Part shown: positions 15,504-48,377 of the stretch, piece by piece | Position numbering within the stretch: the first letter of the stretch is position 1 | Layout: every line of letters starts with the position of its first letter | NCBI GenBank assembly: GCA_001799485.1 | Contig: MGTO01000065.1 | Coordinates: 220-64,219, forward strand | DNA length: 64,000 nucleotides | From: Desulfuromonadales bacterium GWC2_61_20 | GTDB taxonomy: Bacteria > Desulfobacterota > Desulfuromonadia > Desulfuromonadales > UBA2197 | Reading direction: 5' to 3' | The notes under the pieces: generated by a model | Seen by the model: only the letters and a program-made list of their open reading frames with translations | Told to the model about the DNA's origin: nothing | Database searches by the model: none | Program-made: the position numbers and the translations under genes

Positions 15504-15775
15504 TGCTTCTCTCCTTTTCACCAAAAACCCAGGTTAAATGCCCCAGTCGCTGCGTGAATTTACCAAGCAAAGAAAAAGTCCATAGTAATCGATAGCTTTA
15601 TACCATTTCCGCGGCTGACGTCAACAACGTCTGAACGATAATCCTGCTGCCGGTCCAAGTCTTATGACGTAGAAATGCCTCGAATTGGAAGGTGTGACGC
15701 TAATATGCAATAAACAGACCCAGACAGTTCAGGCAGAAACTCGTCACCTTGCGGCGACAAGCGGTCAAAACTCCA

Positions 15776-24916: not shown

Positions 24917-26899
24917 TCAAATCGTCGCCCGGGCAACGTCGCCCTTGGCTCGAGCCGGGGCCGCGGGCAGGGGCGGTGCCGGCTTTGTCCTGACGCTCTG
25001 CGGCAGCGTAATTTTTACCTCAACCGGACTTGCGTGGGACACGCGGTATTCCGGCACGATTTCCCGCAACTTGGCGATCAGCAATGCACTGTCCCTGATC
25101 TGCGAGGTCTGGGCCATGTTCAGGAACCACTGTTCAGAAACGTTCTCATCAATCGGTCTGGACTTGGCCACAAAAATTTTGTCGTGGGCCGTCTCTTGTA
25201 TGTCCTCCCCGGCTAGGAGCAACTCCTCGTAAAGCTTCTCGCCGGGGCGCAAACCGGAAAAGACGATATCGATATCTTTATAGGGACGCAGACCTGAGAG
25301 ACGGATCAACTCTTCCGCCAGTTCGAGAATCTTGACCGGCTCACCCATGTCAAGGAGGAATATCTCGCCCTTGCGCCCCATGCTTCCCGCCTGCAGCACC
25401 AGTTGGGCCGCTTCGGGAATGGTCATGAAGAAACGCGTGACCTCGGGGTGGGTGACGGTGACCGGCCCGCCCTGTTCGATCTGGTCCCTGAAGACCGGGA
25501 TGACACTGCCATTACTCCCCAAAACATTGCCGAAGCGCACGGTAATGAAGTTGGTGGCGCTCCGCCTGGCCAGATATTGCACATAAATCTCGGCGGCACG
25601 CTTGCTGGCACCCATGACATTGGTTGGGTTGACGGCCTTGTCCGTCGAGACCATGACGAAACGACTGACCCCGGCGGCATGGGCCGCATTGGCGAGAATG
25701 CGGGTCCCCATCACATTGTTGCTGATCGCCTCATAGGGATGGGATTCAAGCATCGGCACATGCTTGTAGGCGGCGGCGTGAAACACCACCTCGGGCCGGT
25801 GCCGGGCGAAGATCTGGCGGATTTTCTGTTCGTCGCGGATGTCGCTCAGACTGGGAGTCAGGACAACGCCCGCGGAGCGCGCGTGCAGTTCTCGCTCGAC
25901 ATTGAAGAGGGGGGTTTCGGCACTATCGAGGAGGACGATGCCGGCGGGAGAGAAATTGAGCACCTGGCGGCAGATTTCGCTGCCGATGCTTCCCCCGGCC
26001 CCGGTGACGAGAATGCGCTTCCCCTTGAGGTAGCCCTGGATTTTGTCGACATCGAGCTCAACCGGCCTGCGGCCGAGCAAGTCTTCGAGCTGGACATCCC
26101 GCATATGTCGGACCGATACCGCCCCTTTGATGATCTCGCCGACGGTGGGGAGGATCTTTGATTCCACCCTCGCCCGCCGGCAGGCCGCGACGATGGTGCG
26201 TAATTCGCGATAGCCCACCGCTGGCTGCGCCACGATGACTAGGCCGATATGCCTGCTCCAGCAAGTTTGCACCAGGTCTTGAGGAGCCCCCAGAACCGGC
26301 ACCCCCTGGTAATTCTCCCCGAGGCGCTCCGGGTCACAGTCGAGAAAACCGATTACTGTCATGTTCAAGCTGGGAGTCTGGCGGATTTCCCGGGCGATCG
26401 TCTGTCCTGCCGCGCCGGCTCCAACAACCAGAACCCTCCCCCCCGCCTCCTTGCCTTGTTTGAACGTTCCGCTGACCGTTTCCATACCGATACGGGCCAG
26501 CACGCGCGCACCGCTGATGGTCAGAAAACAGAAGAGTCCATCCAGCACGAAGACGGCGGGGGGGATGTGCACGTATTGACGACCCGCCAGAACATACAAT
26601 CCCAAGAGCAGCAGCGAGGCGGACAGATTGGCGTTGACAATCCTGAGCAGGTCGGGCAGGGAAATGTACTTCCACCCACCGGAGAAGAGGCCCATCGTCC
26701 AGAAGATGGGAATCTTGATCAACAGCAGTAACGGCAGGATGGTCACGATTGACGCTTGGTAAAGCAGGGGGATGGTCCCGTCAAAGCGCAGGGAGAGCGC
26801 ACCGATATAACTACAGACCACTGCCGTCATGAGGAACAAAATGGTCATCAGCATTTTTGTCGGGTTTTTACATCGAAGGCCTTCAGCGAATTCTGCCAT
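24917..26899 (-). CDS. Membrane-anchored nucleotide-sugar 4,6-dehydratase/epimerase (CapD/WbpM/PglF family)
   Basis: ATG at 26897-26899. Four N-terminal TM helices. Two Rossmann motifs (VLVVGAGAAGQ and ILVTGAGGSIGSE). YKHVPMLE, SNNVMGTRILA, STDKAVNPTNVMGASKR. Confidence 0.85.
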   Translation of the reverse strand: MAEFAEGLRCKNPTKMLMTILFLMTAVVCSYIGALSLRFDGTIPLLYQASIVTILPLLLLIKIPIFWTMGLFSGGWKYISLPDLLRIVNANLSASLLLLGLYVLAGRQYVHIPPAVFVLDGLFCFLTISGARVLARIGMETVSGTFKQGKEAGGRVLVVGAGAAGQTIAREIRQTPSLNMTVIGFLDCDPERLGENYQGVPVLGAPQDLVQTCWSRHIGLVIVAQPAVGYRELRTIVAACRRARVESKILPTVGEIIKGAVSVRHMRDVQLEDLLGRRPVELDVDKIQGYLKGKRILVTGAGGSIGSEICRQVLNFSPAGIVLLDSAETPLFNVERELHARSAGVVLTPSLSDIRDEQKIRQIFARHRPEVVFHAAAYKHVPMLESHPYEAISNNVMGTRILANAAHAAGVSRFVMVSTDKAVNPTNVMGASKRAAEIYVQYLARRSATNFITVRFGNVLGSNGSVIPVFRDQIEQGGPVTVTHPEVTRFFMTIPEAAQLVLQAGSMGRKGEIFLLDMGEPVKILELAEELIRLSGLRPYKDIDIVFSGLRPGEKLYEELLLAGEDIQETAHDKIFVAKSRPIDENVSEQWFLNMAQTSQIRDSALLIAKLREIVPEYRVSHASPVEVKITLPQSVRTKPAPPLPAAPARAKGDVARATI

Positions 26900-27156
26900 A
26901 GTCGCCACCTTATCGATATTAGTTGTCAATAACGTTAGAACCGAATTGTGCCTCTTCAATAACCGGATAGGTGGAAACAAGGTCGAATAAGGTTATAAAG
27001 ATTATTAACCTGAAAGTTTCAGGGCTGAGCGCATTCCTGTCCCGCTCTTGCAATGACGCCCCGAGACGGCGCAGAGACTGCCCGGGGACGGCAGTCTCTG
27101 CGCCTGTTTCAGCCCGCATGCGGGGTATGCGCCCCGGGCAAGACGCGACGAGACGA

Positions 27157-28134
27157 TTACGGGGTCAAGCCCTCCACCATCGGATAGGCCGCCGCATCTA
27201 AGCTCGCCCATTCCTTGGCGGATCCGCAGTAGTTGGCGACCTGAGAGTAGCCCATCAACCGGGCAAGAAAATAGATGAAGGCACTTCGCTTGCCGACCGA
27301 GCTATAGACGATGACTTGTTTTTCGGGGGCCTTGGTGAAGCCGTGGGCTTCGAAGAGCAGTTTGAGGTCGTAGTAATTCAATACCGACTTGTCGGCGTTA
27401 TAGCACGCGGTGTAGGGCAGGTTGATCGCTCCGGGAATATGGCCGGGGCGGGTAGTTTCTGCGTCCGGCCCCGCGTACTCGGGTTCGGTACGTGCATCAA
27501 TCACTAGCACTGACCCATCTCCCGCATCGACTATCGCCTTGACCTGATTCTTGTCGACAGAGATGGCGGCAACGCCCCCTGCATCAAAAACTTCAAAGGC
27601 AACTGGAGTGATCGGGGGATGAATCGTGGCAGCGGTTTCCACCGGCCTGAGCTGGGCAAGCCACTGATCCCATCCGCCATTGAGAATGGAAACACTCGTA
27701 CAGCCCAGGTATTCGAGCAGCCAGAAGAGTCGGCCACCGGCACCTTGCGATGCCGTCGTGTTGTCGTAGATGACGATCTTGCTTGTCCGGGTGATGCCCA
27801 TGGCGCCCAGCTTCGCCTTCAGTTCGGCGATAGGCAGCAAAACGTTGTCCTGCCCTGTTTCGGTAAAAGCATTTGGTGGGGCGAAGATGGCGCCGGGGAT
27901 ATGTCCGGCGTTGTAATCGGCCAACGAATGCCGGGCATCGAGAATGATCACCTGCTCGGTGGCAAGAGTGGTGGCAGTCGACAGGAGACTGGCATTCGCA
28001 AAGAGGGTGGTTTCACCCGTTTGTGCCGGCGGCGGCGGGGCCTCGTCTACGCCGGAGCCACCACACGCGGTCAGCAGCGCGGCAAGGAGTGTCGTCAGCA
28101 GAATGGAGAGTCGCCGTACCCGATTTTTCCTCAT
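27157..28134 (-). CDS. Tandem rhodanese-homology-domain lipoprotein, catalytic Cys apparently replaced by Ser
   Basis: ATG at 28132-28134 after AGGAGG. Lipobox LLTTLLAALLTAC. Two rhodanese-like modules. The C-terminal active-site loop reads VIVYSSVGKRSAF, where YC--G-RS is expected. Confidence 0.65.
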   Translation of the reverse strand: MRKNRVRRLSILLTTLLAALLTACGGSGVDEAPPPPAQTGETTLFANASLLSTATTLATEQVIILDARHSLADYNAGHIPGAIFAPPNAFTETGQDNVLLPIAELKAKLGAMGITRTSKIVIYDNTTASQGAGGRLFWLLEYLGCTSVSILNGGWDQWLAQLRPVETAATIHPPITPVAFEVFDAGGVAAISVDKNQVKAIVDAGDGSVLVIDARTEPEYAGPDAETTRPGHIPGAINLPYTACYNADKSVLNYYDLKLLFEAHGFTKAPEKQVIVYSSVGKRSAFIYFLARLMGYSQVANYCGSAKEWASLDAAAYPMVEGLTP

Positions 28135-28306
28135 CACACATCCTCCTTTTGGTGAGACGCCTCCTCCGCGAACTCAAGTTTGGCGTGCGCGTTGCGCTCC
28201 CTGCTTTTTCAGCGGGGCCAATCGAGTCAGGATTTCGCCCTTCTCTGCCTCAGACAACGTGTTTGATTTTCAACGCTTGACCAAGTCCCGGAGCTGTCAT
28301 GGGCAA

Positions 28307-29064: not shown

Positions 29065-30348
29065 TCAATGCAACTGTCGAATTAATTGAGGTTCTTTGGC
29101 GGCCCGGCGGAAAACTTTACCGACCGCTTCCGTCGTCTCGCGCATGTCGGCCTCGCCCGATGTCGGGTGGACCAGAAACATCAGACTGGTGCGACCCAAT
29201 GTCCTGGCCACGGGCAGATGGCTGTTCTGGCACAACATTCTGTTTGTAAAGGCTTTTTCACGACAAATCTCGCTGCAGCTGCCGCTGAGGCAAGGAATCC
29301 CCTCGGCCACAATGGCCTCGATGATCTGCTCCCGGGTCCAGCCGTCCCTGAGGAGTTCCGGACGAATGAAGGTGTAGTACTTGTAGTAGGAATGTCCTGC
29401 TTCGAAGGGGGGCTCGGTCACCCGAAGGGCGGGTATGGTCTTGAAACCTTCGGTCAGGATGGCGGCGTTGCGTCGGCGGCAGGCGATCCAGCCGGAGAGA
29501 CGGGGGAGAGTGGCCCGGCCGATGGCGGCCTGCATTTCCGTCATCCGCCAGTTGGTGCCGAAGGATTCGTGGAGCCAGCGAAAGCCGGCGGGATGCTGGC
29601 GATGGTAAACCGCATCATAGCTCTTGCCGTGGTCCTTGTAGGCCCAGGCCCGCTCCCAGATGCCCCGGTCATTGGTTGTCAGCATCCCCCCCTCCCCGCC
29701 GGTCGTCATGATCTTGTCCTGGCAAAAAGAGAAGGCGGCGACATCGCCCAGCCCCCCGACTTGCCGCCCCCGGTAGCTAGCGCCATGGGCCTGGGCGCAG
29801 TCCTCGATCAGTTTCAGCCCCCGCTCGTGGGCCAGAGCGAGCAACCCTTCCATGTCGCAAGGCCAGCCCGCCAGATGCACGGCGATAATGGCCCGGGTCC
29901 GGGGTGAGAGGACCTTGCGCACGGTGGCGGCGGTAAGGTTCTGACTCTCCGGATCGACGTCGGCGAGAACCGGTATCGCGCCCCGCATGACCACGGCGCT
30001 GGCCGAAGCGATGAAGGTGCGGCTGGTGGTGACGACCTCGTCGCCCGGGCCGATGCCGAGAGCGTAGAGAGCCAGTTCCAGGGCGACGGTGCCGTTGGCC
30101 ACGGCCACCGCATAGCGACAGCCGCAGAGTTCGGCGAACTCCTGCTCGAACCGTCGCCCCTCTTCGCCGGTCCAGTAATTGACTTTCCCGGAGTGCAGCA
30201 CCGCAGCCACGGCAGCGATCTCCTCGGCCTCGAAATGCGGCCACGGCGGCCACGGCGCCGTGCGTGTGGGTGATGATTGGCCCGGTGCCTCGCGAAGGGG
30301 GAGCCGAGGCCGGGCATATTCAGACCGTTGACCGGGCAGTAGCGACAT
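29065..30348 (-). CDS. DegT/DnrJ/EryC1/StrS-family PLP-dependent sugar aminotransferase
   Basis: ATG at 30346-30348. FEQEFAELCGCRYAVAVANGTVALELAL, VTTSRTFIASA, FSFCQDKIMTTGGEGGMLTT (the family's Lys-containing PLP site). Confidence 0.85.
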   Translation of the reverse strand: MSLLPGQRSEYARPRLPLREAPGQSSPTRTAPWPPWPHFEAEEIAAVAAVLHSGKVNYWTGEEGRRFEQEFAELCGCRYAVAVANGTVALELALYALGIGPGDEVVTTSRTFIASASAVVMRGAIPVLADVDPESQNLTAATVRKVLSPRTRAIIAVHLAGWPCDMEGLLALAHERGLKLIEDCAQAHGASYRGRQVGGLGDVAAFSFCQDKIMTTGGEGGMLTTNDRGIWERAWAYKDHGKSYDAVYHRQHPAGFRWLHESFGTNWRMTEMQAAIGRATLPRLSGWIACRRRNAAILTEGFKTIPALRVTEPPFEAGHSYYKYYTFIRPELLRDGWTREQIIEAIVAEGIPCLSGSCSEICREKAFTNRMLCQNSHLPVARTLGRTSLMFLVHPTSGEADMRETTEAVGKVFRRAAKEPQLIRQLH

Positions 30349-30394: not shown

Positions 30395-31270
30395 TCAGGG
30401 CCGACTGACCCAACTCACCACCATACTTCCCTTACCCATTACCCGTGCACCCTGCCAGAGGAAGACATACGCCGGATTGCGCCGGGAACGCATGTTGTTC
30501 GAGGTCACATACTCCGGATCAACGGGGGTGGTGGTTTTGCCGGCGAGGCATTTGAACCCGGCCCGATGGAGAAGACGGTTCAACGTTTGCGGGGTGAAAC
30601 CGTGCAGGTGATGCGGCGGGGGAACGGTCGCCACCCGGTCGCGGACGCCGCCCAGCAGGAGGCGCATTTTCGTCGGGAGACCGTCTTCATTGGGGGTGAC
30701 AAAGAGGGCAACGCCGCCGGGGGCGAGGAGACGCCGGATCATGCGCAGATTGTCATAGGGGTCGGGGAGGTGTTCGATCACATCGCGCAAGCGAATGAAG
30801 TGGAATGCTCCTTCCGGCAGACCACTTTGCAGCAGGGGGACACAGCGCAGGTCGACCTGCAACTGTTGCCGCCCCGCCGCGATCAGTTCCGGATCGATAT
30901 CGATACCCGTGGCCTGCCAGCCGAGATCGGTGGCGGCACGCACTGAGGCCCCGGAGCCACAACCGACTTCGAGATAGCGTGGGGTTTGCAGGGTCTGCCC
31001 GGTCAGACGGGTAATTTCCCGCAGGTGCCCGAGGAGTTGCTGGGTTTCATGTCGCAGGATCTCCGGCGTAATGGTCTGATGCATATACTGGGTGTATTGA
31101 AAATCCTTGGAAACCTGCGAAAACTCCAGGGTCGGCTCAAAAAACGGCGCCGGATTGACGTAGATCACTTCGCATCGGGCGCATTTGCCGATGGACCACT
31201 CACCGACCGACGAGAGCTTGATGTAGTCGTCGGCACCACAGACATTGCAGGAAATCGGTTGTTTGATCAT
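30395..31270 (-). CDS. Class I SAM-dependent methyltransferase with N-terminal Cys4 zinc-ribbon
   Basis: Internal ATG at 31268-31270 (ATGA overlap with upstream stop). CNVCG...CARCE ribbon. SAM motif YLEVGCGSGAS. Motif II/III LRDVIEHLPDP...LLAPGGVALFVTPN. Confidence 0.8.
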   Translation of the reverse strand: MIKQPISCNVCGADDYIKLSSVGEWSIGKCARCEVIYVNPAPFFEPTLEFSQVSKDFQYTQYMHQTITPEILRHETQQLLGHLREITRLTGQTLQTPRYLEVGCGSGASVRAATDLGWQATGIDIDPELIAAGRQQLQVDLRCVPLLQSGLPEGAFHFIRLRDVIEHLPDPYDNLRMIRRLLAPGGVALFVTPNEDGLPTKMRLLLGGVRDRVATVPPPHHLHGFTPQTLNRLLHRAGFKCLAGKTTTPVDPEYVTSNNMRSRRNPAYVFLWQGARVMGKGSMVVSWVSRP

Positions 31271-32511
31271 GACGTCGCTCCTTTTGCACTCTTGTAGTTG
31301 AGGTTGGCCGACCGGCGTTGCCAGGGTTGTCGCCAGCGGGCGAGAAGGGATCCGCAGGCGCTGGCGAAACCCTGCCGGAGTAGATGGGCGATCCGCCGCA
31401 GGAAGGGCCGGAGGTCGTGCCAATCGAGAATGGCAAAGACATGGGGGTGCAGGTAGGGGCGGAGATACGCACCCACGGTATAACGTTCCCGGGTCAGATA
31501 GATGGCGCTGTAGCCAAGATCGCGACTGAGATCGATCCAGTAGACCCCCTTGCGGTAATCGGAGGCGACGGGGAGTTCTCCCGCGACCAGATGGCGATAG
31601 TGCAGCCAGGGGAAGTTGGTCCCGCAGCGGACGGCGAGGAGGGTGGAGAGATTGTGACGCGCGTTGACCTCCATGAGCTTGTAGACGCCGCTGCGCGCAT
31701 CCTTCTTGAACTCGGTACAGGCGTAGCCGGAAAAACCGATGGCGTGCAGGATGGCGCGCCCGGGCTCAAGGACTTCGGGAATCTCCCGACTGAGAACGAC
31801 CCGGGGCGAACCAAACCACGGGGGCGCATTGCGCACGTGAGCGGCGGTGAACTCGGCGACGGCAACACCGTTCCAGGCATAGGCGTTGTAATTGACCACC
31901 TGGCTATCGTCACCCGGGATGAGTTCCTGGAGCATGATCTCCAGTCCTGCTTCCGCGGCGCGTTCGCAGACGTCGAGGAGTTGTGCGGGCGTATCGACCC
32001 GAAACATCTTGCGCTGAAACCGTTCATAAAAGAGATGGCTCTGGCACGGTTTGACCAGACAGGGGAATTCGCCCGTGCCGGCGTAACTTTCGATCTCGTC
32101 CCAGGAGTTGGGGACCAGAGTGCGCGGGGCCGCCACGCCGCTGGACTCGGCCAGGGCGTAAGTCAGCTTCTTGTCGATGCAGCGCCGGGTGACCGCCCAG
32201 TCCGGGCAGGCGACGATGAAGTGCTCTTCGAGCACGGCTTTGTACTGCGAAGCCACGGTCAGGGACTCGTCGGAAGTCGGGAAGATCACCCCTCCGGCAA
32301 ACCGCGCCGCGCTGCCGAGGAGCAGCCCGATAAATTCCTCCGTGTGCTTTTCCGGATGGGGGGCGCGGAGAGCGACGGTCACATGGCGCGAGCGATGGGC
32401 CATGTCGCGCTCGTCGTAATGCACCACCACGATCGGCACCCCCATGGTCCCGAGGGCACGGGCCACACCCAGCGCCATCGTATGTCCGGACAGTATGATT
32501 GCGGGTCGCAT
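31267..32511 (-). CDS. ATP-grasp family carboxylate-amine ligase (COG3919-like)
   Basis: ATG at 32509-32511 after AAGGAG. N-terminus AIILSGHTMALGVARALGTMGVPIVVV, CLVKPCQSHLF, IMLQELIPGDD, ACTEFKKDARSGVYKLMEVNAR fit the ATP-grasp fold. Confidence 0.7.
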   Translation of the reverse strand: MRPAIILSGHTMALGVARALGTMGVPIVVVHYDERDMAHRSRHVTVALRAPHPEKHTEEFIGLLLGSAARFAGGVIFPTSDESLTVASQYKAVLEEHFIVACPDWAVTRRCIDKKLTYALAESSGVAAPRTLVPNSWDEIESYAGTGEFPCLVKPCQSHLFYERFQRKMFRVDTPAQLLDVCERAAEAGLEIMLQELIPGDDSQVVNYNAYAWNGVAVAEFTAAHVRNAPPWFGSPRVVLSREIPEVLEPGRAILHAIGFSGYACTEFKKDARSGVYKLMEVNARHNLSTLLAVRCGTNFPWLHYRHLVAGELPVASDYRKGVYWIDLSRDLGYSAIYLTRERYTVGAYLRPYLHPHVFAILDWHDLRPFLRRIAHLLRQGFASACGSLLARWRQPWQRRSANLNYKSAKGATS

Positions 32512-32544: not shown

Positions 32545-33777
32545 TCAGGGACAGCGGTAGTACGCCTTGATCCCGTGTTTCCGGAAGTAGCTGAAGGCGC
32601 TTTGCATCCGCTTGCGAATGACCTCGGGCGACACCTTGTCCTGTATCTCGGAAGCCGGTGTCCCCTCCTTGTCGTGGTAGGGAAAAACCACCACGGAATT
32701 GAACTGGGCCTGGCGGACCATGTCGAGGGTGGCGGAAAATTCGCTCTCGGATTCCGAGGGGAAGCCGACAATCATCTGGGTCTCGAGATTCATCTGCGGC
32801 TGCAGTTGTCTGGCCTTGCGCAAAATTTTCTGGAGCTCGCCCGCCGTGTGCTCGCGCTGCATAAGCTCAAGAATCCGGTCGCTCCCCGACTGCACCGGGC
32901 AGAGCATGCTCTTGACCAGCCGCGTGAAGGGCTGTTCAAGAAGTTCTCGCTCGTACTTGATGAGAAATTTCGGGTGAATTTCCTTGATGTGAAAACTGAT
33001 GTCGGTGAGCTTTTCCCCTTTCCTGTCCCCATCGTCGAGGGATAGCCGCAACGCCCGCAGCAGGTCCGGGAGGTTTCCGCCGTTATCCAGGCCATAACAG
33101 CCAGGGTCGTCGCCGAGGATGCTGAAATCGCGATAGCCCGCCCGCAGTCCCCGGCGCAGTTCGGCGACAACGTCCGAAACCGGCTTGCTTTTCACCGGCC
33201 CGACGGAGCGGCGGATGGCGCAGTAGCTGCATTTGCCGTGACAGCCGCGACAGACAAAGAGAAACCAGCTCTCCTGCGGTTCGGAAAGCAGATCCTTCAG
33301 ACGATTCACCCCGGACTGGGCGGTTTCGGCGAAGAATTCGCGATTGAACAGCTCGCCGCTCTGGATTTTGCGTTTGAGGGACTTGACGATATTGAGATTT
33401 TTTCTGGTGACGAGGTTTTCTTCCGACATTTCGGCGTATTTGACGACGTCATGGTCGAAATAGCGGTCGATATGCTCGATTTCCCGCGGCGCGATTTTGT
33501 GAAAATCGGCAAACTCGCGATACCTGTCCGAAGCAATGTCCGGTAGACACCCGAAGACGACGATCTCCCGGCCGAACTTGCGAAAAAAACGCAAACGCTT
33601 GACCGAGTCATCTTCTTCCTTCTTCTTGAAAGCACAGGTGCTGACGAGGATCCGGTCGGCATCTTCCGGGTTTTCCACCAGGGCGTGGCCATTGGCCTGC
33701 AGGTATTTCTTGATCGTCTCGATATCCAACTGGCGCCGCTTGCATCCGGCTTCTTCGACATAGATTCGCGTTGTCAC
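32545..33777 (-). CDS. Radical SAM enzyme of the methylthiotransferase (MiaB/RimO/MtaB)-like family, no TRAM domain
   Basis: GTG start at 33775-33777 five nt after AAGGAGG (the track ORF extends spuriously to 34575). N-terminal MTTase-type cysteines AGC, STC, FGC. Radical SAM motif CHGKCSYC. 410 aa, ending directly after the radical SAM core. Confidence 0.75.
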   Translation of the reverse strand: MTTRIYVEEAGCKRRQLDIETIKKYLQANGHALVENPEDADRILVSTCAFKKKEEDDSVKRLRFFRKFGREIVVFGCLPDIASDRYREFADFHKIAPREIEHIDRYFDHDVVKYAEMSEENLVTRKNLNIVKSLKRKIQSGELFNREFFAETAQSGVNRLKDLLSEPQESWFLFVCRGCHGKCSYCAIRRSVGPVKSKPVSDVVAELRRGLRAGYRDFSILGDDPGCYGLDNGGNLPDLLRALRLSLDDGDRKGEKLTDISFHIKEIHPKFLIKYERELLEQPFTRLVKSMLCPVQSGSDRILELMQREHTAGELQKILRKARQLQPQMNLETQMIVGFPSESESEFSATLDMVRQAQFNSVVVFPYHDKEGTPASEIQDKVSPEVIRKRMQSAFSYFRKHGIKAYYRCP

Positions 33778-34652
33778 GAAAGCCTCCTTTTTTCGTTGCC
33801 GGTCTTTACCAGGCAGGCAATCCAGTGATTGGTGATGCTCCGCAGGAAGGAAAAAACCTTTTTTTTTCCCATGGCGAACAACGCGTCGCTGAACCGCATC
33901 GAGAAGGGCAGCGGGAGGAATTCGCGGCGCCACAGGGTCAACGGGCCAAAACTGACGTTGCAGCTTTCCACTTCCGTCAGGCCATGACGGCGGTACACCA
34001 TATCGATCGTGGCAGGGCGGTATCTTCTGATCATCTCGGCGCTGAACTTTTGGGTTCTTTGCGGGACCGCAACGATAGCGCAGGTCAATCTTCGCACTGC
34101 CCGCAACGGCATCCAGACCAGGTAATAATAGGGATCGCAAATCTTGCCGAGCATCAGCCAGTTGGGGAGGGCCATGATCACCACCCCTCCCGGCTTGGCG
34201 ACGCGGGAGATTTCCGCGACGGCCGGTTCGTCTTCCCGCAGATAGGAAAGGACCCCGACACAGCAAACGATATCGAAGCTTTGATCGCGGAAGGGGAGGC
34301 TTTCCACGTCGGCCTGGATCCAGGTGACGTTCTCGCCGACCTCGTTTCTGGCCTGGGTCAGATGGCGCCGATTGATATCGATCCCGGTCAGGCGACAGCG
34401 GTGCGCGGCGAATGCCCCGAGAATGCCCCCGGGGCCGCAGCCACATTCGAGGATGCACGGATGATCCGCCGTCGCCGCATACTTGTTCAGCAGCTCGACC
34501 ACCAGTTCCCGCCTTTTGCGCATCTCGAAGCTGAAGAAACGGCGCGGCAGCGCCGGCGCGTAAACCTCCTTCCACCAGCCATAGTCGGCGTCGAAGAAAT
34601 CGATGATCCGGCGGTTGTCGGCCACCGGCTTGTTTGCGTCAGTGCCGAGCAT
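33774..34652 (-). CDS. Class I SAM-dependent methyltransferase
   Basis: Internal ATG at 34650-34652. SAM motif ILECGCGPGGILG. DIVCCVGVLSYL, AKPGGVVIMALPN. The upstream part of the track ORF (to 35552) overlaps the FemAB-like gene in another frame. Confidence 0.8.
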   Translation of the reverse strand: MLGTDANKPVADNRRIIDFFDADYGWWKEVYAPALPRRFFSFEMRKRRELVVELLNKYAATADHPCILECGCGPGGILGAFAAHRCRLTGIDINRRHLTQARNEVGENVTWIQADVESLPFRDQSFDIVCCVGVLSYLREDEPAVAEISRVAKPGGVVIMALPNWLMLGKICDPYYYLVWMPLRAVRRLTCAIVAVPQRTQKFSAEMIRRYRPATIDMVYRRHGLTEVESCNVSFGPLTLWRREFLPLPFSMRFSDALFAMGKKKVFSFLRSITNHWIACLVKTGNEKRRLS

Positions 34653-35754
34653 GATCGGGCCTTGTCTGCTCCACCGGGGGCGGCGGCATCCGTCGCGGGC
34701 AGGTGGTGCTGCGGTACAGGGGGAAAAACTCCTCATTGACCTGCCCCGTCGCGAGCTGCATCTGCCGGAAGCGACTATTGAGCCAGCCGTAGTGATCGTG
34801 GTCGACGACCAGACGGCAGGTATGAAATTCCGCGGTCGTCCGGGAAAATCCGGCTTTGAAGCGAAAGAGGGAATCGTCCCGCCCGCCGACCCCGCCGCCC
34901 AGATGAAAGATGCTCTGGCCGTTGTCCCTGGCCCAATTCCGCACGTGATCGAACATGAGCTTCGAGGGGGCCAGGGGCAGATATTTTTCCGCCGTGCCGC
35001 CAAGGTGGTACTGAACGATGCCATTGACCGCCGTGAAGAGACCGGCGGCCGCCACCTCGTTGTGCGGCGAAAGGATGGCGCAGAGATGGAGTCTGGCGCC
35101 GAGGGCGGCGCACAGATCACGAAAATAGGTTTCGGAAAAGTGGTAGAAGGATTCGGCGTGCAGACGCTCCATGGTCGCCTCGTAGACGGCGACAAAGGCC
35201 GGCCAGTCCTCGTGGTGGTCGAGCCTGGCCTGAAATCCCTTTTGGCGCAGCGCGGCGATTCCCCGTCGATGGTTTTCGCGAGTGGAACGCCAGAGACTCT
35301 GGCGATCGTCGTTGAGGTCGATCCAGACCGTCTGGCCGTGGCGGACGACGGCGCCATGCTCGCAGAATTCGGCCAGAGGACTCGACAGCAGTGGATGGAA
35401 GCGCAGGAAAACCGAGATGATTTCCGCGTCCCGGCTGCAGCGCAAAAAGGCATGAAGCAGGCGACATCCCCGATGCGCTGTCGCCGTCGGGGAGAGCAGC
35501 GGCGAAGGATAGCCGTAGGGGCTGCTGGCGTCGCGCCAGGTCGATCGGCCACCGAGTCCGTCAGGAACGCGGCGCAACAGCAACGGGATCAGCAGGGCCT
35601 GCGACCCCTCCCGCGCCAGAAAAGCTGCTGCGGTTCCACCCTCGTGCCGCGCGGCGAATGCCACATATTCCGGCAAGTGATAAAAGTCATGTGGCATTTC
35701 GGCAAGGCACTCGGCCCAGCGCGGATCCGTGACCGTAATAAATTCGGCGTTCAT
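34639..35754 (-). CDS. FemAB-like / GNAT-fold (Acetyltransf_6) aminoacyl- or acyl-transferase
   Basis: ATG at 35752-35754 after GGAGGG (ATGA overlap with upstream stop). YHLPEYVAFAA, QYHLGGTAEKYLPLAPSKLMFDHVRNWARDNG, FHLGGGVGGRDDSLFRFKAGFS are typical of FemAB-related proteins of EPS loci. Confidence 0.7.
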   Translation of the reverse strand: MNAEFITVTDPRWAECLAEMPHDFYHLPEYVAFAARHEGGTAAAFLAREGSQALLIPLLLRRVPDGLGGRSTWRDASSPYGYPSPLLSPTATAHRGCRLLHAFLRCSRDAEIISVFLRFHPLLSSPLAEFCEHGAVVRHGQTVWIDLNDDRQSLWRSTRENHRRGIAALRQKGFQARLDHHEDWPAFVAVYEATMERLHAESFYHFSETYFRDLCAALGARLHLCAILSPHNEVAAAGLFTAVNGIVQYHLGGTAEKYLPLAPSKLMFDHVRNWARDNGQSIFHLGGGVGGRDDSLFRFKAGFSRTTAEFHTCRLVVDHDHYGWLNSRFRQMQLATGQVNEEFFPLYRSTTCPRRMPPPPVEQTRPDHARH

Positions 35755-36413
35755 CGCGTCCCTCCTAGACCGGCATTGGTCTGCAACGCGTCCCCGGAGT
35801 GGATGTTTTTATGCATCCGGGCGTAGCGCTCTTGATCGAGGTCGGTTTCCACCTCGTCGGGGTTGGCGGCGGCCCCCTGCCGGGACAGGACGGCGCGAAC
35901 GGTCAGGAGCAGAATCTTCAGGTCGAGAATGATGGATTGGTGTTCGACGTACCAGACATCGAGGGCGAGACGCGCGTTCCAGGGGAGAAAGTTGCGGCCA
36001 TGCACTTGCGCCCAGCCGGTGATGCCGGGGCGCACGTCGTGCCGCCGCCGCTCCCGTGCGGTGTAATACGGCAGGTAGCGCATCAGCAGCGGCCGGGGGC
36101 CGACCAGACTCATCTCTCCCTTGAGCACATTGAACAGTTCCGGTAGTTCATCCAGGCTGGATTGACGCAAAAAAGCGCCGAACGGAGTCAGGCGGGCGCC
36201 GTCGGGCAAAAGATAGCCGGCGGCATCACGCGCGTCCGTCATGGTGCGGAACTTGAGGATCGCGAAGGGGCGCCCATGCAGGCCCGGTCGCTGCTGGCGA
36301 AAGAGGACTCCCCGGCCCAGCTGGTTGCGAATCAGCCAGGCCAAAGCCGTCAGCAGTGGTGCCAACAGGAACAGCAGCAGGACACTGACGATCAAGTCAA
36401 ACAGTCGTTTCAT
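35751..36413 (-). CDS. Initiating polyprenyl-phosphate sugar-phosphate transferase (small PglC/WbaP C-terminal type)
   Basis: Internal ATG at 36411-36413. MKRLFDLIVSVLLLFLLAPLL, RPFAILKFRTM, SLDELPELFNVLKGEMSLVGPRP, PGITGWAQV. Confidence 0.9.
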   Translation of the reverse strand: MKRLFDLIVSVLLLFLLAPLLTALAWLIRNQLGRGVLFRQQRPGLHGRPFAILKFRTMTDARDAAGYLLPDGARLTPFGAFLRQSSLDELPELFNVLKGEMSLVGPRPLLMRYLPYYTARERRRHDVRPGITGWAQVHGRNFLPWNARLALDVWYVEHQSIILDLKILLLTVRAVLSRQGAAANPDEVETDLDQERYARMHKNIHSGDALQTNAGLGGTR

Positions 36414-39135: not shown

Positions 39136-40337
39136 GTCTTGCCATCCCAGCACGGATGCGGCTTGGCCGTTTCAAGGATTGGGTGGGAGGAAGTCCATGC
39201 CGGGGGGAAAAAGAACCTTAGATAGTCCTGAAGTATCCGGTCAACATGGTAGTTTGCGGCCCGCTCCATCAACCGCATTTTGCTTGCAGCAGACGGCGGG
39301 CAGGTCAGGAGCGACACCATGGCCGCCGCCATCGCATCGGTATCGCCGATGGCGACAAGCGGTCCGAAGTTGCCCTGATCGAGGATTTCCGCCGGCCCGC
39401 TGGGACAGTCGGTGGCAATCACCGCAGTGCCGAGGGCCATCGCCTGGATCAGCACATTGGGCAGACCTTCATGGCGCGACGACAAGACCAGCAGCCGCGC
39501 CTGGCGCATGTAGGGGAAGGGGTTGGGGACGAAACCGGGCAGGGCGACGGCCTCGCCGAGGCCCAGTTCCGCCACCAGTTGTTGCAGAGCTTGCCGCTCC
39601 GGGCCTTCGCCAAGGATCATCAGACGGCACTCCAGTTGACGCCGGACGAGGGCGAAGGACTTGATCAGGGTATCAAAATCTTTCTGCGGCGCCAGCCGTC
39701 CGACCCCGAGAATCACGGGTAGTGCGCCGGAATGGAACCAGGGATGCTCGAGGGCAGCGTCGGCCATGGCGAGAAGGTCCCGGGTGACGACCGGGTTATT
39801 GATGACTTTCAGCAGTCGCGGATTGAGCCGCAACAGCGCCTGCAGATCGCTGGCAACCCCTGCGGAGACGGCGATGATGCCGTCAGCCCGAGGATAGATC
39901 AGCCGGGCCAGTGTAACGGCTTTCCAGGCCCCCCAGGGCGGGAGGGTCCGCAGCGTTTCCGACAGAGTCGCAGCTTCGCGCACGAAGACTCGTACCGGGG
40001 AGCGGGCCAGCATTCGGGCGAGAAGAACCACAATATTGGCCCGAAACGGCGTGGACAGGAAGACCTGCGGACGATGGGCGCGCAGGTAGCGGACCAGGCC
40101 GGGGAGACAGGTAAGCACGCGCCCCCTGGCGAGATCGATGATACGGACCTGCGCCGCAACCTGGGGCAGATACGGTCCAGTGGCGTTGGCGAGCAGGAGA
40201 TCGACCCGGAATCCGGCATCGAGCAGCCCGCCGGCGAGATTGAGCATGGCCCTCTCCGCGCCACCACCACCGAGACTCGGCATGAACAGGGCGATATGCT
40301 TGTCACCCGCCGAGGGGTCAGGCCCGCAGGCGCTCAC
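39132..40337 (-). CDS. Glycosyltransferase family 4 (GT-B)
   Basis: IALFMPSLGGGGAERAMLNLAGGL N-terminus. SSRHEGLPNVLIQAMALGTAVIATDCPSGPAEIL. Start uncertain: GTG 40335-40337 (20-nt overlap with upstream gene) or the ATG of MPSLGGGG. Confidence 0.75.
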   Translation of the reverse strand: MSACGPDPSAGDKHIALFMPSLGGGGAERAMLNLAGGLLDAGFRVDLLLANATGPYLPQVAAQVRIIDLARGRVLTCLPGLVRYLRAHRPQVFLSTPFRANIVVLLARMLARSPVRVFVREAATLSETLRTLPPWGAWKAVTLARLIYPRADGIIAVSAGVASDLQALLRLNPRLLKVINNPVVTRDLLAMADAALEHPWFHSGALPVILGVGRLAPQKDFDTLIKSFALVRRQLECRLMILGEGPERQALQQLVAELGLGEAVALPGFVPNPFPYMRQARLLVLSSRHEGLPNVLIQAMALGTAVIATDCPSGPAEILDQGNFGPLVAIGDTDAMAAAMVSLLTCPPSAASKMRLMERAANYHVDRILQDYLRFFFPPAWTSSHPILETAKPHPCWDGKT

Positions 40338-41808
40338 GGGCTCCCTGGTAGACCGTTGCGTAAAGGTATCCACGTGTACTCTCCCAGGCGTCGGAAACCC
40401 GCCGCGGTTCGATGGAAACGCCCTGGATCTTATATTCTTCGGAGAAGAGCGCCAGAGCGCCGAGCCAGGCCACGGTTTCGTCGAGCATATTGACACTCCG
40501 GGTGGTGGCCTGCGGCCAGATACGTGCCAGCCACTTCAGACTGTCGGGATTGAACAGGTTGAGTCGCTGCAAGGCGTCGCTTTTAAGGAGACTCTGCATC
40601 GGGGCTCCGAGATCGTGGCGCAGCCAATGCCCGTATTTATGACTCAGTTTTGTAAACTGGTCCGCCACCGGTGGCGCCCCGTCGAGAGGCAATCCGTTCC
40701 GCGCCCACGGAATTTCTCCGACCTTGCCGGGCAAAGTCGGTAGCAACCGGGCGTAGTGGTGATCCCCGCGTGTCTTGAATTCCAGACTCCACATCAGTGC
40801 GCAGGTTTCCGGCGCGGTAAAAAGCTGAAAGAAAGGGATATGTTCCGCTATCAGCGCCAAGGGACCCTGGTTGCGGCGGCGCATGTAGTGCAACTGCTGT
40901 TCGATCTCCCGATACTGCGCCTCCGTGCGGTCGGGAATATGTGCCCGATAGCCATAAATCTCCCGCTGCAATGCCCGGTCAAGGCCACTGCTGACAGCGG
41001 TGCGCAGGAGTCCGAGTTTGTCCACACGCCGTGTCAGCAACGGTTTGAGGTTCCAGACCCGCTTACCGGAGAATTCGGCGCGCCCGATGCTGTCACCATA
41101 GCTGCCGGCGACTATGGCATCGATGCCGTCGAGACGCAGAACCTGGCTCATGGCATGGAGATGAAACGGGGCAAACTCGGCACCCATTCTGGCCCCCAGG
41201 TGAATGTTTTCCCAGAGCTGTTCCGGTTCCAGTTTGAGACGAACCCAATCCCAGTCGTAACGTCGGGCAATTTCCTTGGCGTAGACGATATCGCGACAGT
41301 CGTCCAGCCCCCAGGTGATGGCGATGACGTCTCCGCCGTAGTCCCCGGTTTCCTGGAGTTCGCGCAGCGTGCCGGCGACAATCCTGCTGTCCAGCCCGCC
41401 GGAGAGCAACAACCCTATCCGTTTACGCCCCGCAACGTAACCGAGCATCTCCCGGTGCAGGGCCGCCTTGAGTTCTCTGGCGACCGCTTCCGGCTCACGC
41501 TCGGCATTGCCATGGCACGGGACGCCGGCATACCGCCAGCCGCCATTGCCGTCGGGGGCGCCCAGCCAGGGGCTCCGGCGAATCCCCTGTACCATGGTGG
41601 TATTCCCGGGCAGATACCCCTTGCAGAGAAAACCGAGAGCGCCCAACGGATCGACTTTGCGCTCGACCGGGGACATCGTCTGCAGGATGCCACCGATCCC
41701 GGTACTGAACGCCGTCGGTTGCCGGACATGGTAATACGGATAGAGACTGCCGATATGGGCATAGGTATCGAACCAGGATGCCGCCGGAACCGTGACGTCA
41801 TGTAACAT
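40318..41808 (-). CDS. Asparagine-synthetase-like adenylating (PP-loop) protein lacking the N-terminal glutaminase domain
   Basis: ATG at 41806-41808, 6 nt after AAAGGAGG. Begins MLHDVT (no Cys2 nucleophile). PP-loop RIGLLLSGGLDSRIVAG. 496 aa. Confidence 0.7.
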   Translation of the reverse strand: MLHDVTVPAASWFDTYAHIGSLYPYYHVRQPTAFSTGIGGILQTMSPVERKVDPLGALGFLCKGYLPGNTTMVQGIRRSPWLGAPDGNGGWRYAGVPCHGNAEREPEAVARELKAALHREMLGYVAGRKRIGLLLSGGLDSRIVAGTLRELQETGDYGGDVIAITWGLDDCRDIVYAKEIARRYDWDWVRLKLEPEQLWENIHLGARMGAEFAPFHLHAMSQVLRLDGIDAIVAGSYGDSIGRAEFSGKRVWNLKPLLTRRVDKLGLLRTAVSSGLDRALQREIYGYRAHIPDRTEAQYREIEQQLHYMRRRNQGPLALIAEHIPFFQLFTAPETCALMWSLEFKTRGDHHYARLLPTLPGKVGEIPWARNGLPLDGAPPVADQFTKLSHKYGHWLRHDLGAPMQSLLKSDALQRLNLFNPDSLKWLARIWPQATTRSVNMLDETVAWLGALALFSEEYKIQGVSIEPRRVSDAWESTRGYLYATVYQGARERLRA

Positions 41809-45886: not shown

Positions 45887-46885
45887 ATGTCATCGTGGCG
45901 GCAAAGGATAACGACCTGGAGGGCCTACTGGAGAAAGCCTCGTTGGCGGCTGGGGGTTTTCGGATTGGCAGCGCTTGTCGTCACGGGGCTGAGCAGTCCC
46001 CGGGGGATTCCGTTTGTCGGGCGGGAAACGGTCTGGTCCATCGGTATCTACTCAGGACCGACCCTCTTCGACCTGCAGCCACTAGCCAATTGCACGAACC
46101 CGGTACTCACCGCCGAGGACATCGACGATGTGTCGGCACGTTACGTGGCGGATCCGTTTTTGTTGCGTCACGGAGATGGCTGGGTGATGTTCTTCGAGGT
46201 CTTCAATCGGGAGAAATGGCGCGGTGAGATTGGCTTCGCCACGAGCCGCGACGGCTGCTCCTGGCGCTATGGTGGAATGGTTTTACAGGAACCTTTTCAT
46301 CTTTCTTATCCGCACGTCCTGCTTGTTGATGGCGAATATTTCATGATCCCCGAGTCGGGTGCAGACAAATGCGTGCGCCTTTATCGCGCCAGGGATTTCC
46401 CCAGGCAGTGGGAGTATGTCTCCACCCTGCTGGCCGGCGAGGCATTTCGGGACAGTTCCGTCTTCCATCGTGACGGAATATGGTGGATGTTTACATCCAT
46501 TGAGAAATCAGAGCTGCGACTCTACTATGCCGATCGCCTGACGGGGCCGTGGCGACCGCATCCGCGCAATCCCCTTATCGCCAACGATGCCGGCGTTGCC
46601 CGCGGCGGGGGACGCGTCACGACGCAGAACGGGCAGCTGTTTCGTTTGGCCCAGGACGACCACCTATCGTACGGGCGTCAGGTCCGGGCATTTGCGATCA
46701 CCGAACTGAGCAAGGTGAATTATCGGGAAATCCCGGTCTCGCACTCTCCTGTCGTCGTCGCCGGCAACGCGGCCTGGAATAACCTCGGCATGCATCAGGT
46801 CGATTGCCAGCCGCTGACGAACTCGACATATATCGCCGCCGTGGACGGGTTGACCTCCTATTTCCGCGTCGGGTTGAAGTACTGA
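45887..46885 (+). CDS. Membrane-anchored GH43-like five-bladed beta-propeller protein
   Basis: ATG at 45887. N-terminal anchor WRLGVFGLAALVVTGL. ADPFLLRHGDGWVMFFE, YPHVLLVDGEYFMIPES, DSSVFHRDGIWWMFTS are propeller blade signatures resembling GH43 / glucosamine-IPC-transferase-like proteins. Confidence 0.5.
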   Translation: MSSWRQRITTWRAYWRKPRWRLGVFGLAALVVTGLSSPRGIPFVGRETVWSIGIYSGPTLFDLQPLANCTNPVLTAEDIDDVSARYVADPFLLRHGDGWVMFFEVFNREKWRGEIGFATSRDGCSWRYGGMVLQEPFHLSYPHVLLVDGEYFMIPESGADKCVRLYRARDFPRQWEYVSTLLAGEAFRDSSVFHRDGIWWMFTSIEKSELRLYYADRLTGPWRPHPRNPLIANDAGVARGGGRVTTQNGQLFRLAQDDHLSYGRQVRAFAITELSKVNYREIPVSHSPVVVAGNAAWNNLGMHQVDCQPLTNSTYIAAVDGLTSYFRVGLKY

Positions 46886-48197: not shown

Positions 48198-48377
48198 GTT
48201 GTTCACAGACTGTCATGCCTTTCCAAGCCATTGAAGCGAACTGAATCCGAACGACTGTACATACCGAATACTCCACCTCCACGCAAAGTCAAACGGCTCT
48301 TGCCGTCAGAACCAAATAATATGGCCCTCCCCGTGAGCGGGGAGGGCCATGGTCTTGCTTCAGTCAGAGACCAGAAG

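Follow-up and report, generated by a model that had tools for sequence, protein, structure and literature searches.

A TRAM-less, methylthiotransferase-like radical SAM enzyme encoded in a polysaccharide operon of a Desulfuromonadales bacterium

Introduction

The only known substrates of methylthiotransferases (MTTases) are tRNA and the ribosomal protein S12 (2023 paper, PMC10702137). The locus described here raises the question of what an MTTase-like radical SAM enzyme may act on when its gene is embedded among polysaccharide genes and its product has no TRAM domain. The gene lies in a stretch of 64,000 nucleotides from Desulfuromonadales bacterium GWC2_61_20 (contig MGTO01000065.1), the whole of which is referred to below as the window. 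An earlier note on this DNA had proposed an MTTase-family enzyme without TRAM and, from the genomic context, a non-RNA substrate of glycan type.

Results

The gene occupies positions 32545..33777 of the minus strand and encodes 410 amino acids plus a stop codon (32545-32547). Its GTG start codon (33777-33775) is preceded, 6 nt to the 5' side, by a sequence that reads as a ribosome-binding site, AAGGAGG (33784..33790, minus strand), so that both elements named in the earlier note could be located. Every motif that it quoted, namely RIYVEEAGCKRR, ILVSTCAFKK, VVFGCLPD, FVCRGCHGKCSYCAI and, at the C terminus, FRKHGIKAYYRCP, was found in the 410-aa translation. The gene is not a chance reading frame, given that public data contain a protein identical to its product, along with 6218 homologues (E <= 1e-10). 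A near-identical 410-aa cluster-mate from a Desulfuromonadales metagenome-assembled genome (MAG), OGR32139.1, is named "hypothetical protein" by NCBI, and relatives are automatically annotated as MiaB, CDKAL1 or hypothetical, labels that are probably wrong for most such proteins.

Two domains account for most of the protein. A UPF0004 (MTTase N-terminal) domain spans residues 4-86 (33520..33768, minus strand; Pfam PF00919, E 1.3e-15) and holds the auxiliary-cluster cysteines C12, C48 and C77, while the radical SAM core spans residues 175-353 (32719..33255, minus strand; PF04055, E 6e-19) and carries the CxxxCxxC motif as C179-x3-C183-x2-C186. All six cysteines are invariant, those of the auxiliary cluster across 34 family members, and all six match the cluster cysteines of both E. 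coli MiaB and E. coli RimO in the alignment; the retention of the three auxiliary-cluster ligands was thereby borne out. Two motifs common to MTTases, PVQSGS (294-299) and GFPSES (338-343), are retained in the core and correspond to the PxQSGS and GFP(G/S)E(T/S)E motifs that the enzyme has in common with both E. coli proteins (PxQxxS and GFPGETE-type in the comparison with RimO). Judged by its sequence, the product belongs with the radical SAM enzymes of the MiaB/RimO/MtaB superfamily and has two predicted [4Fe-4S] clusters, SAM-dependent methylthiolation being its putative activity.

Other features set the family apart from canonical MTTases. Three further cysteines, C176, C293 and C409, are near-invariant within it and absent from canonical MTTases. 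Between the two domains, alignment and an AlphaFold2 model place a family-specific insert at residues ~107-170 (33268..33459, minus strand), which is predicted to be helical with low model confidence, is lacking in E. coli MiaB and RimO, and may be a candidate substrate-recognition element. At the C terminus, the position taken by TRAM in MiaB and RimO is occupied by a short tail (residues 384-410; 32548..32628, minus strand) that consists of one helix and a short strand and closes with a conserved AYYxCP ending.

The absence of TRAM, a central claim of the earlier note, was upheld by several approaches. Pfam gave no TRAM match even at E <= 1, either in the window enzyme or in any of the 34 family members, and the same searches gave no match to the B12-binding domain (PF02310). 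In the alignment the window enzyme ends soon after the post-core helix, whereas MiaB and RimO run many residues further, and the NCBIfam alignments end at about profile position 353 of 429. The AlphaFold2 model (pLDDT 88) likewise shows a single helix followed by a short strand at the C terminus, and neither a beta-barrel nor any other TRAM-like domain.

Profile searches place the enzyme within the MTTase superfamily and outside its described groups. The best NCBIfam match was TIGR00089, the MiaB/RimO family, at 231.4 bits against a cut-off of 251, and the best match of equivalog type was TIGR01578, the archaeal/eukaryotic-type tRNA methylthiotransferase (e-MtaB), at 200.1 bits against 315. 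Scores for TIGR01125 (the RimO equivalog; 186.6 bits, cut-off 357), TIGR01574 (164.3 bits, cut-off 355) and TIGR01579 (167 bits, cut-off 357) were lower still, so that the enzyme falls under every curated MTTase cut-off tested and far under all equivalog cut-offs. Foldseek searches with the AlphaFold2 model returned MtaB, MiaB and RimO as the closest solved folds (E 1e-25 to 1e-23, probability 1.00, TM-score about 0.7). The tRNA A37 MTTases MiaB, MtaB and e-MtaB (CDKAL1) agree with the window enzyme in both N-terminal domains, in cluster ligands and in fold, and MiaB and MtaB supplied the top matches (9a6d and 7mj* entries; query-normalised TM-score 0.70-0.73). They differ from it in having TRAM, in their profile cut-offs of 315-357 bits, of which it reaches 164-200, and, for E. 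coli MiaB, in an identity of only 25%.

RimO, which modifies an Asp beta-carbon of uS12, gave the strongest sequence match to any solved structure (4jc0, E 1.6e-38; Foldseek E 7.5e-24); it too joins a UPF0004 domain, with its three auxiliary-cluster cysteines, to a radical SAM core. Its target, a side-chain sp3 carbon of an amino acid, is of the kind that we propose below for the window enzyme. However, E. coli RimO is only 26% identical to the window enzyme, bears a C-terminal TRAM domain and lacks the insert of about 45-60 aa, and the window enzyme is encoded in a sugar-decoration operon and not in a housekeeping context.

Radical SAM enzymes of the B12-binding type, such as MgmA (9ccb) and TsrM, also place a Rossmann-like N-terminal domain before the radical SAM barrel and rank behind the MTTases in the structural search (E 7e-17 and weaker). 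Unlike them, the window enzyme has the three MTTase cysteines in its N-terminal domain and no B12 domain, and sequence similarity to MgmA is confined to the core (E 1.7e-10). A B12-type identity was therefore rejected, and the assignment to the MTTase family made in the earlier note, with profiles nearest to MiaB/RimO, holds.

In neighbour-joining trees of few sequences, the family and its TRAM-less relatives form a group to which E. coli MiaB and RimO do not belong; the window enzyme belongs to a distinct, uncharacterised clade. A library search with a TRAM-less profile was taken to the best-scoring 150 representatives at 50% identity, which measure about 240-760 aa, mostly 360-460. Since these match the profile nearly end to end, and the ten of them checked with Pfam had no TRAM, the clade comprises at least 150 representatives. 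Its distribution is patchy, mostly in MAGs. A plasmid search turned up canonical MiaB-like genes alone, 22-27% identical, and no cultured host with a member of the family; one match, on a Geobacter anodireducens plasmid, is unannotated and only 27% identical.

In the window, the operon runs in the order PglC-like transferase, FemAB-like protein, methyltransferase MT1, radical SAM enzyme, ATP-grasp ligase, methyltransferase MT2 and DegT aminotransferase, all on the minus strand. The small PglC-type polyprenyl-phosphate sugar-phosphate transferase (Bac_transf; 35751..36413) is followed by the FemAB-like/Acetyltransf_6 (GNAT) protein (34639..35754), a recurrent cassette member with a weak TIGR03019 match, and by MT1, a class I SAM methyltransferase (33774..34652). 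The TGA stop of MT1 overlaps the GTG of the radical SAM gene by 4 nt (GTGA), and the latter is translationally coupled within the operon. The ATP-grasp carboxylate-amine ligase (U414; 31267..32511) begins 33 nt downstream of the radical SAM gene, and its stop shares a 4-nt overlap with MT2, a second class I methyltransferase of Methyltransf_23 type (30395..31270). From the GT4 gene through MT2, all genes lie on a single strand, overlapping or closely spaced; the gene for the DegT/PseC-type nucleotide-sugar C4 aminotransferase (29065..30348; E 7e-95) follows on the same strand, 46 nt beyond MT2. The genes from the FemAB-like protein to the second methyltransferase make up a compact five-gene module.

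The surroundings agree with the earlier placement of the gene in a polysaccharide locus. A membrane-anchored UDP-GlcNAc 4,6-dehydratase of PglF/CapD type (24917..26980, minus strand; Polysacc_synt_2, E 2e-120), together with the DegT, PglC-type, Wzx, Wzy, Wza and Wzc genes, lies on one strand between 20.3 and 45.7 kb, so that the gene set expected of a Wzx/Wzy-dependent locus with bacillosamine-type priming is complete in the window, the Wzy match being weak (Wzy_C, E 1.5e-4, under Pfam's threshold). Scanning of the ORFs at 20.3-45.7 kb brought up no PglD-type hexapeptide acetyltransferase, and the window offers no tRNA-related context for the radical SAM gene.

Searches on the partner enzymes were informative mainly on their folds. 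The ATP-grasp protein matched PRK12767, a carbamoyl-phosphate-synthase-like ATP-grasp family (NCBIfam, E 1.9e-12), and Foldseek with its AlphaFold2 model returned biotin carboxylase and the L-amino acid ligase 3vot; the model confirms a generic ATP-grasp ligase fold, and the PDB sequence search, AlphaFold2 and Foldseek gave no clue to its substrate. The JGI name 'D-aspartate ligase' for this protein is an automatic label. The FemAB-like protein had no relative among solved structures, and the nearest solved relatives of MT1 are generic, many of them N-methyltransferases. A rhodanese encoded in the locus is unlikely to be the sulfur donor, as its translation begins with a lipoprotein signal sequence and the gene is absent from other loci.

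Conservation of the neighbourhood was assessed in 32 unique informative loci of the core family, drawn from many phyla: Desulfuromonadales and other Deltaproteobacteria, Bacteroidota, Nitrospirota, Thermodesulfobacteriota, Ignavibacteriales, Chlorobiaceae and a DPANN archaeon are among the sources. Cassette partners or glycan genes were present in 24 of them. An MT1 and/or ATP-grasp gene lies within 5 kb in 23/32 and a Bac_transf, DegT, PglF, GT, Wza or Wzc gene within 10 kb in 19/32, so the most consistent partners are MT1 and the ATP-grasp ligase, and not EPS genes in general; the pair of MT1 and radical SAM enzyme persists outside glycan loci too (L016). Some loci hold two or three tandem copies of the radical SAM gene. 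In the window's own subclade all eight genes of the first tree, and one added in a later tree, are linked to glycan or cassette genes. Such genes were absent from the other 8/32 loci, about a quarter, among which are a whole sister subclade (L007, L025 and L029) and a Pedobacter homologue that adjoins cmoA/cmoB-like tRNA-modification methyltransferase genes. The linkage of homologues to glycan genes is thus strong, though not universal.

More distant TRAM-less relatives (26-35% identity) adjoin DegT, NDP-sugar epimerase or dehydratase, FemAB-like and Wza/Wzc genes, and share their sugar clusters with several further radical SAM enzymes. One relative is fused to a nucleotide-diphospho-sugar transferase fold (a weak match), and PglD_N-FemAB fusions are present in related cassettes.

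Discussion

An enzyme that is TRAM-less and encoded in a sugar-decoration operon conserved across phyla would be expected to form part of a conserved decoration module and not to modify the translation apparatus. These two features suggest that its substrate is probably a glycan building block. The non-RNA, glycan-type substrate predicted in the earlier note is accordingly favoured by the family, the absence of TRAM and the locus, and is weakened by the quarter of loci that show no glycan link.

From the domain architecture, cluster ligands, fold, operon structure and synteny described above, we infer a substrate, a sulfur chemistry and an order of steps. The PglF-like dehydratase and the DegT aminotransferase would generate a UDP-2-acetamido-4-amino-2,4,6-trideoxyhexose, a bacillosamine-type sugar. 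Because a PglD-type acetyltransferase is missing from the locus, an amino-acid or carboxylic-acid side chain may be added at N4 by the ATP-grasp ligase, the FemAB-like enzyme or both, and MT1 and MT2 would methylate this side chain. The radical SAM enzyme would take hydrogen from an unactivated carbon of this side chain, or of its free precursor, and the auxiliary cluster would then donate sulfur (S or SCH3), a step comparable to the one that RimO carries out on the Asp beta-carbon of S12. The PglC-like transferase would put the decorated sugar on undecaprenyl phosphate, and the loaded sugar would prime a Wzx/Wzy-dependent polymer for export by Wza/Wzc. That the two-cluster enzyme (methyl)thiolates the acyl or aminoacyl group borne on N4 of a bacillosamine-type sugar is the reading that we favour, though we put it a little short of an even chance.

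Radical chemistry on a 4-amino-4,6-dideoxy nucleotide sugar has a precedent in DesII, which acts on TDP-4-amino-4,6-dideoxy-D-glucose in desosamine biosynthesis directly after a DegT-family aminotransferase, the likeness being one of description only. So far as we know, DesII lacks a UPF0004 auxiliary-cluster domain, and its reaction is a deamination or a dehydrogenation rather than an insertion of sulfur. We likewise know of no methylthio-bearing (SCH3) polysaccharide from a locus such as this one. Literature searches on TRAM-less or non-canonical MTTases and on radical SAM enzymes in sugar pathways yielded no methylthio-bearing polysaccharide and nothing else of relevance, and neither a search on MiaB-like enzymes and TRAM nor the ProfileView paper contributed anything further.

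The pathway and the non-RNA substrate could be as proposed and the radical reaction a different one, in which the auxiliary cluster anchors or oxidises the substrate: thiolation alone, with MT1 as an S-methyltransferase, dehydrogenation, epimerisation, a DesII-like deamination or C-C bond formation. With two dedicated methyltransferases adjoining its gene, the radical SAM enzyme could be one that does not itself methylate, and the tightness of their coupling, like the persistence of the MT1 pair outside glycan loci (L016), is consistent with such a division of labour. The near-invariant C176, C293 and C409, the insert, the scores under all curated MTTase cut-offs and the company of several radical SAM enzymes in the sugar clusters of distant relatives point the same way, as does the want, to our knowledge, of any SCH3-bearing glycan. 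However, the whole family keeps each motif that MiaB and RimO have in common, the three auxiliary-cluster cysteines among them, and every one of the nearest folds is that of a bona fide methylthiotransferase; C-methylation of the glycan, which the earlier note had also raised, is less likely because the enzyme has no cobalamin domain. We regard a different chemistry as a real, if rather unlikely, possibility.

A substrate of another kind appears less plausible. The resemblance to RimO, the best sequence match among solved structures and an enzyme that acts on a protein side chain, would suit a component of the EPS machinery as target, or else a small peptide, since ATP-grasp and FemAB-like enzymes can build peptides; some family members also lie outside glycan loci. 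Yet precursor-peptide, carrier-protein or RiPP-recognition genes were not seen in the annotated cassettes, the partners recur with PglC, DegT and PglF genes, and the PglD_N-FemAB fusions suggest an amino sugar as acceptor, which makes a protein or peptide substrate improbable. Least of all do we expect an ordinary tRNA or ribosomal MTTase that has lost TRAM, perhaps served by a stand-alone TRAM protein, in a glycan neighbourhood that is incidental. The eight loci without glycan genes, the cmoA/cmoB-like neighbours in Pedobacter and the automatic MiaB or CDKAL1 labels would fit it, but the translational coupling in a decoration operon, the recurrence of the same partners in many phyla, the tandem paralogues (two or three copies per locus), the patchy occurrence mostly in MAGs, the identity of only 25-26% to E. 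coli MiaB and RimO and the scores far under all equivalog cut-offs argue strongly against it.

More speculatively, and with considerable doubt, the window enzyme would stand as the first member of a large clade of MTTases without TRAM that act on nucleotide sugars or lipid-linked glycans, here placing a (methyl)thio group on an amino-acyl side chain. A glycan intermediate as substrate would be a new substrate class for the MTTase family. If (methyl)thiolation of the sugar decoration is true, the locus would direct the synthesis of a sulfur-decorated exopolysaccharide of a type so far undescribed. A clade of such enzymes in sugar-decoration cassettes would bring radical sulfur insertion into glycan biosynthesis, and predicts a new chemical decoration on the surface polymers of bacteria and archaea.

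Results

The radical SAM enzyme gene runs from 33777 to 32545 on the minus strand and encodes 410 residues from a GTG start, 6 nt downstream of an AAGGAGG ribosome-binding site (33790-33784, minus strand); the earlier note had read both correctly, and the motifs it quoted are all found in the translation. On the sequence, the start overlaps by 4 nt (GTGA) the TGA stop of the upstream class I methyltransferase MT1 (33774..34652, minus strand). Pfam places UPF0004 at residues 4-86 (E 1.3e-15) and Radical_SAM at residues 175-353 (E 6e-19), and at E <= 1 it detected neither TRAM, the C-terminal RNA-binding domain of methylthiotransferases (MTTases), nor a B12-binding domain, nor any other credible match. 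The top NCBIfam model is TIGR00089 of the MiaB/RimO family (231 bits vs a cut-off of 251), whose alignment ends near profile position 353 of 429, where TRAM begins. With the four equivalog-type MTTase models the protein reaches 164-200 bits, where the cut-offs are 315-357.

An AlphaFold2 model computed from a 34-sequence alignment has a mean pLDDT of 88.3, with a helical segment of low confidence at residues ~121-170. Past the last core strand the chain forms one helix (residues 384-400) and a short strand and then ends, with no beta-barrel after the core. The first Foldseek matches in the PDB are MtaB (9a6d), MiaB (7mj*) and RimO (4jc0), with E values of 1e-25 to 1e-23 and a TM-score of ~0.7, followed by the B12 enzyme MgmA (9ccb, 7e-17). 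The family rank of TIGR00089 and these folds uphold the assignment to the MTTase family made in the earlier note, and the loss of TRAM that it claimed is confirmed by Pfam, by the model and by the relatives, since none of 34 family members has a TRAM or B12 match. The enzyme is 25% identical to Escherichia coli MiaB and 26% to RimO, from which the TRAM-less family differs by an insert of ~45-60 residues between the two domains and by ending shortly past the post-core helix, whereas MiaB and RimO extend many residues further.

A search of 5.8 billion proteins gave 6218 matches at E <= 1e-10; among the matches listed, most have ~410 residues and 40-79% identity. Pipelines call these relatives MiaB, CDKAL1 or nothing at all, and a near-identical 410-residue cluster-mate in the Desulfuromonadales MAGs GWD2_61_12 and GWC2_61_20 is labelled "hypothetical protein" at NCBI. 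The family profile gave 5734 matches at E <= 1e-30 among 1.84 billion representatives. The best 150 of these (~240-760 residues, mostly 360-460) align over almost their whole length, with no space left for a TRAM domain, and none was detected by Pfam in ten of them. A few TRAM-less relatives are fusions (P0137, P0191, P0217): one carries an N-terminal histidine phosphatase (His_Phos_1), one an N-terminal nucleotide-diphospho-sugar transferase fold (weak match) and one an uncharacterised C-terminal extension of ~350 residues.

Every gene between 20.3 and 45.7 kb of the window lies on the minus strand. In operon order they begin with Wzx, a Wzy-like protein (weak match, E 1.5e-4), a GT4, an AsnB-like protein and three further GT4s, and continue with a small PglC-type Bac_transf, a FemAB-like/Acetyltransf_6 protein, MT1 and the radical SAM enzyme. 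These are followed by a 414-residue ATP-grasp ligase (31267..32511), a second class I methyltransferase, MT2 (30395..31270), and a DegT aminotransferase, and finally by a LuxR-type regulator, a rhodanese lipoprotein, a PglF-type dehydratase, a porin, Wza and Wzc. From the GT4 gene GT4a through MT2, neighbouring genes overlap or have gaps of no more than 33 nt, and 46 nt separate MT2 from DegT. The 414-residue protein has no Pfam match; it matches ATP-grasp families in NCBIfam, and the structures matched by its model (pLDDT 89) are those of biotin carboxylase, PurK and L-amino acid ligase.

Other features of this locus deserve mention. The gene for the double-rhodanese sulfurtransferase (27157-28137, minus strand) is flanked by those for the LuxR-type regulator and the PglF-like protein. 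The sulfurtransferase carries a signal sequence of lipoprotein type (...LLTAC), matches NCBIfam 'rhoda_near_glyco' weakly and is not kept in the other loci; as it is predicted to lie outside the cytoplasm, it is unlikely to supply sulfur to the radical SAM enzyme. The asparagine-synthase-like protein (40318-41808, minus strand) shows only the synthase (adenylating) domain, with no glutamine amidotransferase domain found, and its role may be amidation of a polymer carboxylate, such as that of a uronic acid. Divergent from the adjoining Wzx gene, a bacterial protein (45887-46885, plus strand) matches GINT1_N (E 1.6e-59), the N-terminal domain of eukaryotic glucosamine inositolphosphorylceramide transferase 1. 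The locus is flanked by Beta-helix/NosD-like, pectate-lyase-like, FG-GAP and Calx-beta/Ig-domain proteins (3868-5241, 10992-12848, 14007-15524 and 46917-51170, all minus strand) which, judging by their domain families, are probably secreted and may have a polymer-modifying or matrix role.

Loci from genomes (21), metagenomes (80) and nine contig look-ups were compared with the window's cassette by tblastn and Pfam, and the counts cover 32 unique loci of the core family (>= 38% identity) whose flanks were usable. MT1 and/or the ATP-grasp gene lies within 5 kb in 23 of them, Bac_transf, DegT, PglF, GT, Wza or Wzc lies within 10 kb in 19, and 24 have some cassette or glycan partner. The consistent link to exopolysaccharide genes asked for in the earlier note therefore holds for about three quarters of the loci and fails for the remaining 8/32, which have neither kind of partner. 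Hosts comprise Deltaproteobacteria, Bacteroidota, Nitrospirota, Thermodesulfobacteriota, Ignavibacteriales, Chlorobiaceae, Pseudomonadota and a DPANN archaeon. The recurrent set is FemAB-like, MT1, radical SAM enzyme, ATP-grasp ligase and MT2, beside PglC-like, DegT and PglF-like genes; one Lentisphaerae locus retains nothing but the MT1-enzyme pair. In the window's own subclade all eight genes of the first tree, and one added later, are glycan-linked. Tandem paralogues, in two copies at three core-family sites (L003 139-2815, L026 6767-9326 and the contig of P0016/P0048) and in three copies at a more distant locus (L060 1332-5286), suggest successive modifications. Relatives at 26-35% identity adjoin DegT, NDP-sugar epimerases/dehydratases, FemAB-like genes, other radical SAM enzymes or Wza/Wzc.

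Two further loci are unusual in content. A related cassette (L027 3430-13368) joins the enzyme with an Orn/DAP decarboxylase, a second, PylC-like ATP-grasp, a 2-hydroxyacid dehydrogenase and a PEP mutase, which suggests that phosphonates and amino acids both serve as decorations within one module. At L064 (7640-13886) four radical SAM genes in a row accompany a DegT gene: one is of the SPASM type, two have Zn_ribbon_HMPTM at the N-terminus, and the MTTase-like one encodes a distant TRAM-less relative. The arrangement resembles a sugar pathway that relies heavily on radical SAM enzymes.

Discussion

The radical SAM enzyme has a two-cluster, MTTase-type architecture without TRAM, it lies in an operon with sugar-decoration enzymes, and the synteny of its cassette extends across phyla. 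Taken together, these results partly support the reading of the earlier note, namely the assignment to the MTTase family, the loss of TRAM and the link to glycan genes. The PglF-like and DegT enzymes would yield a UDP-4-amino-4,6-dideoxy-HexNAc. Given that no PglD-type acetyltransferase was found among the ORFs at 20.3-45.7 kb, N4 would be acylated with an amino acid or another acid by the ATP-grasp and/or FemAB-like enzymes; PglD_N-FemAB fusions, present in some cassettes, tie the latter to the 4-amino sugar. Both methyltransferases and the radical SAM enzyme would then tailor the N4 side chain, the radical SAM enzyme possibly placing S or SCH3 on an unactivated carbon, by analogy with RimO acting on Asp. 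Many ATP-grasp homologues bear the automatic JGI name "D-aspartate ligase", which fits this analogy and is only a lead.

When the protein is aligned directly with MiaB and RimO of E. coli, the auxiliary-cluster cysteines C12, C48 and C77 and the radical SAM cysteines C179, C183 and C186 are invariant, and PxQ, GFP-E and other core motifs are kept. Three near-invariant cysteines are specific to the family, C176 (in CRGC), C293 (in LCPxQSGS) and C409 (in the terminal AYYxCP), with codons at 33250-33252, 32899-32901 and, for C409-P410, 32548-32553; they are missing from both E. coli enzymes and from more distant TRAM-less relatives. A different radical chemistry on the same substrate is a tentative alternative that we take seriously. 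A protein or peptide as substrate of the cassette enzyme seems unlikely to us. A 2023 study (PMC10702137) gives tRNA and S12 as the only known MTTase substrates.

The enzyme could also be a housekeeping MTTase that has lost TRAM, a reading we consider very improbable. A neighbour-joining tree places the core family within a set of more distant TRAM-less relatives, with E. coli MiaB and RimO separate from them all. The subclade sister to the window's own, with 46-52% identity to the window protein (L007/L028, L025/L031, L029), has no glycan-linked member (0/3; L007, L025, L029), its neighbourhoods being of housekeeping type, with Flp/Tad pilus genes and a two-component system, an MFS transporter, or Mfd/enolase, and its substrate may be different. 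Only one family member hints at a connection with RNA, in a Pedobacter sp. MAG (L006 9986-13726, 48% identity), where the homologue and a small unknown gene precede cmoA-like and cmoB-type (Methyltransf_9) methyltransferases, which are tRNA U34 modification genes.

No description of TRAM-less MTTase-type enzymes in sugar pathways was found in a literature search. The radical SAM enzyme is MTTase-like in fold and in predicted working. Given that it lacks the TRAM domain and scores below the curated cut-offs, it is assigned to a separate TRAM-less clade associated with glycan genes rather than to MiaB, RimO or MtaB.
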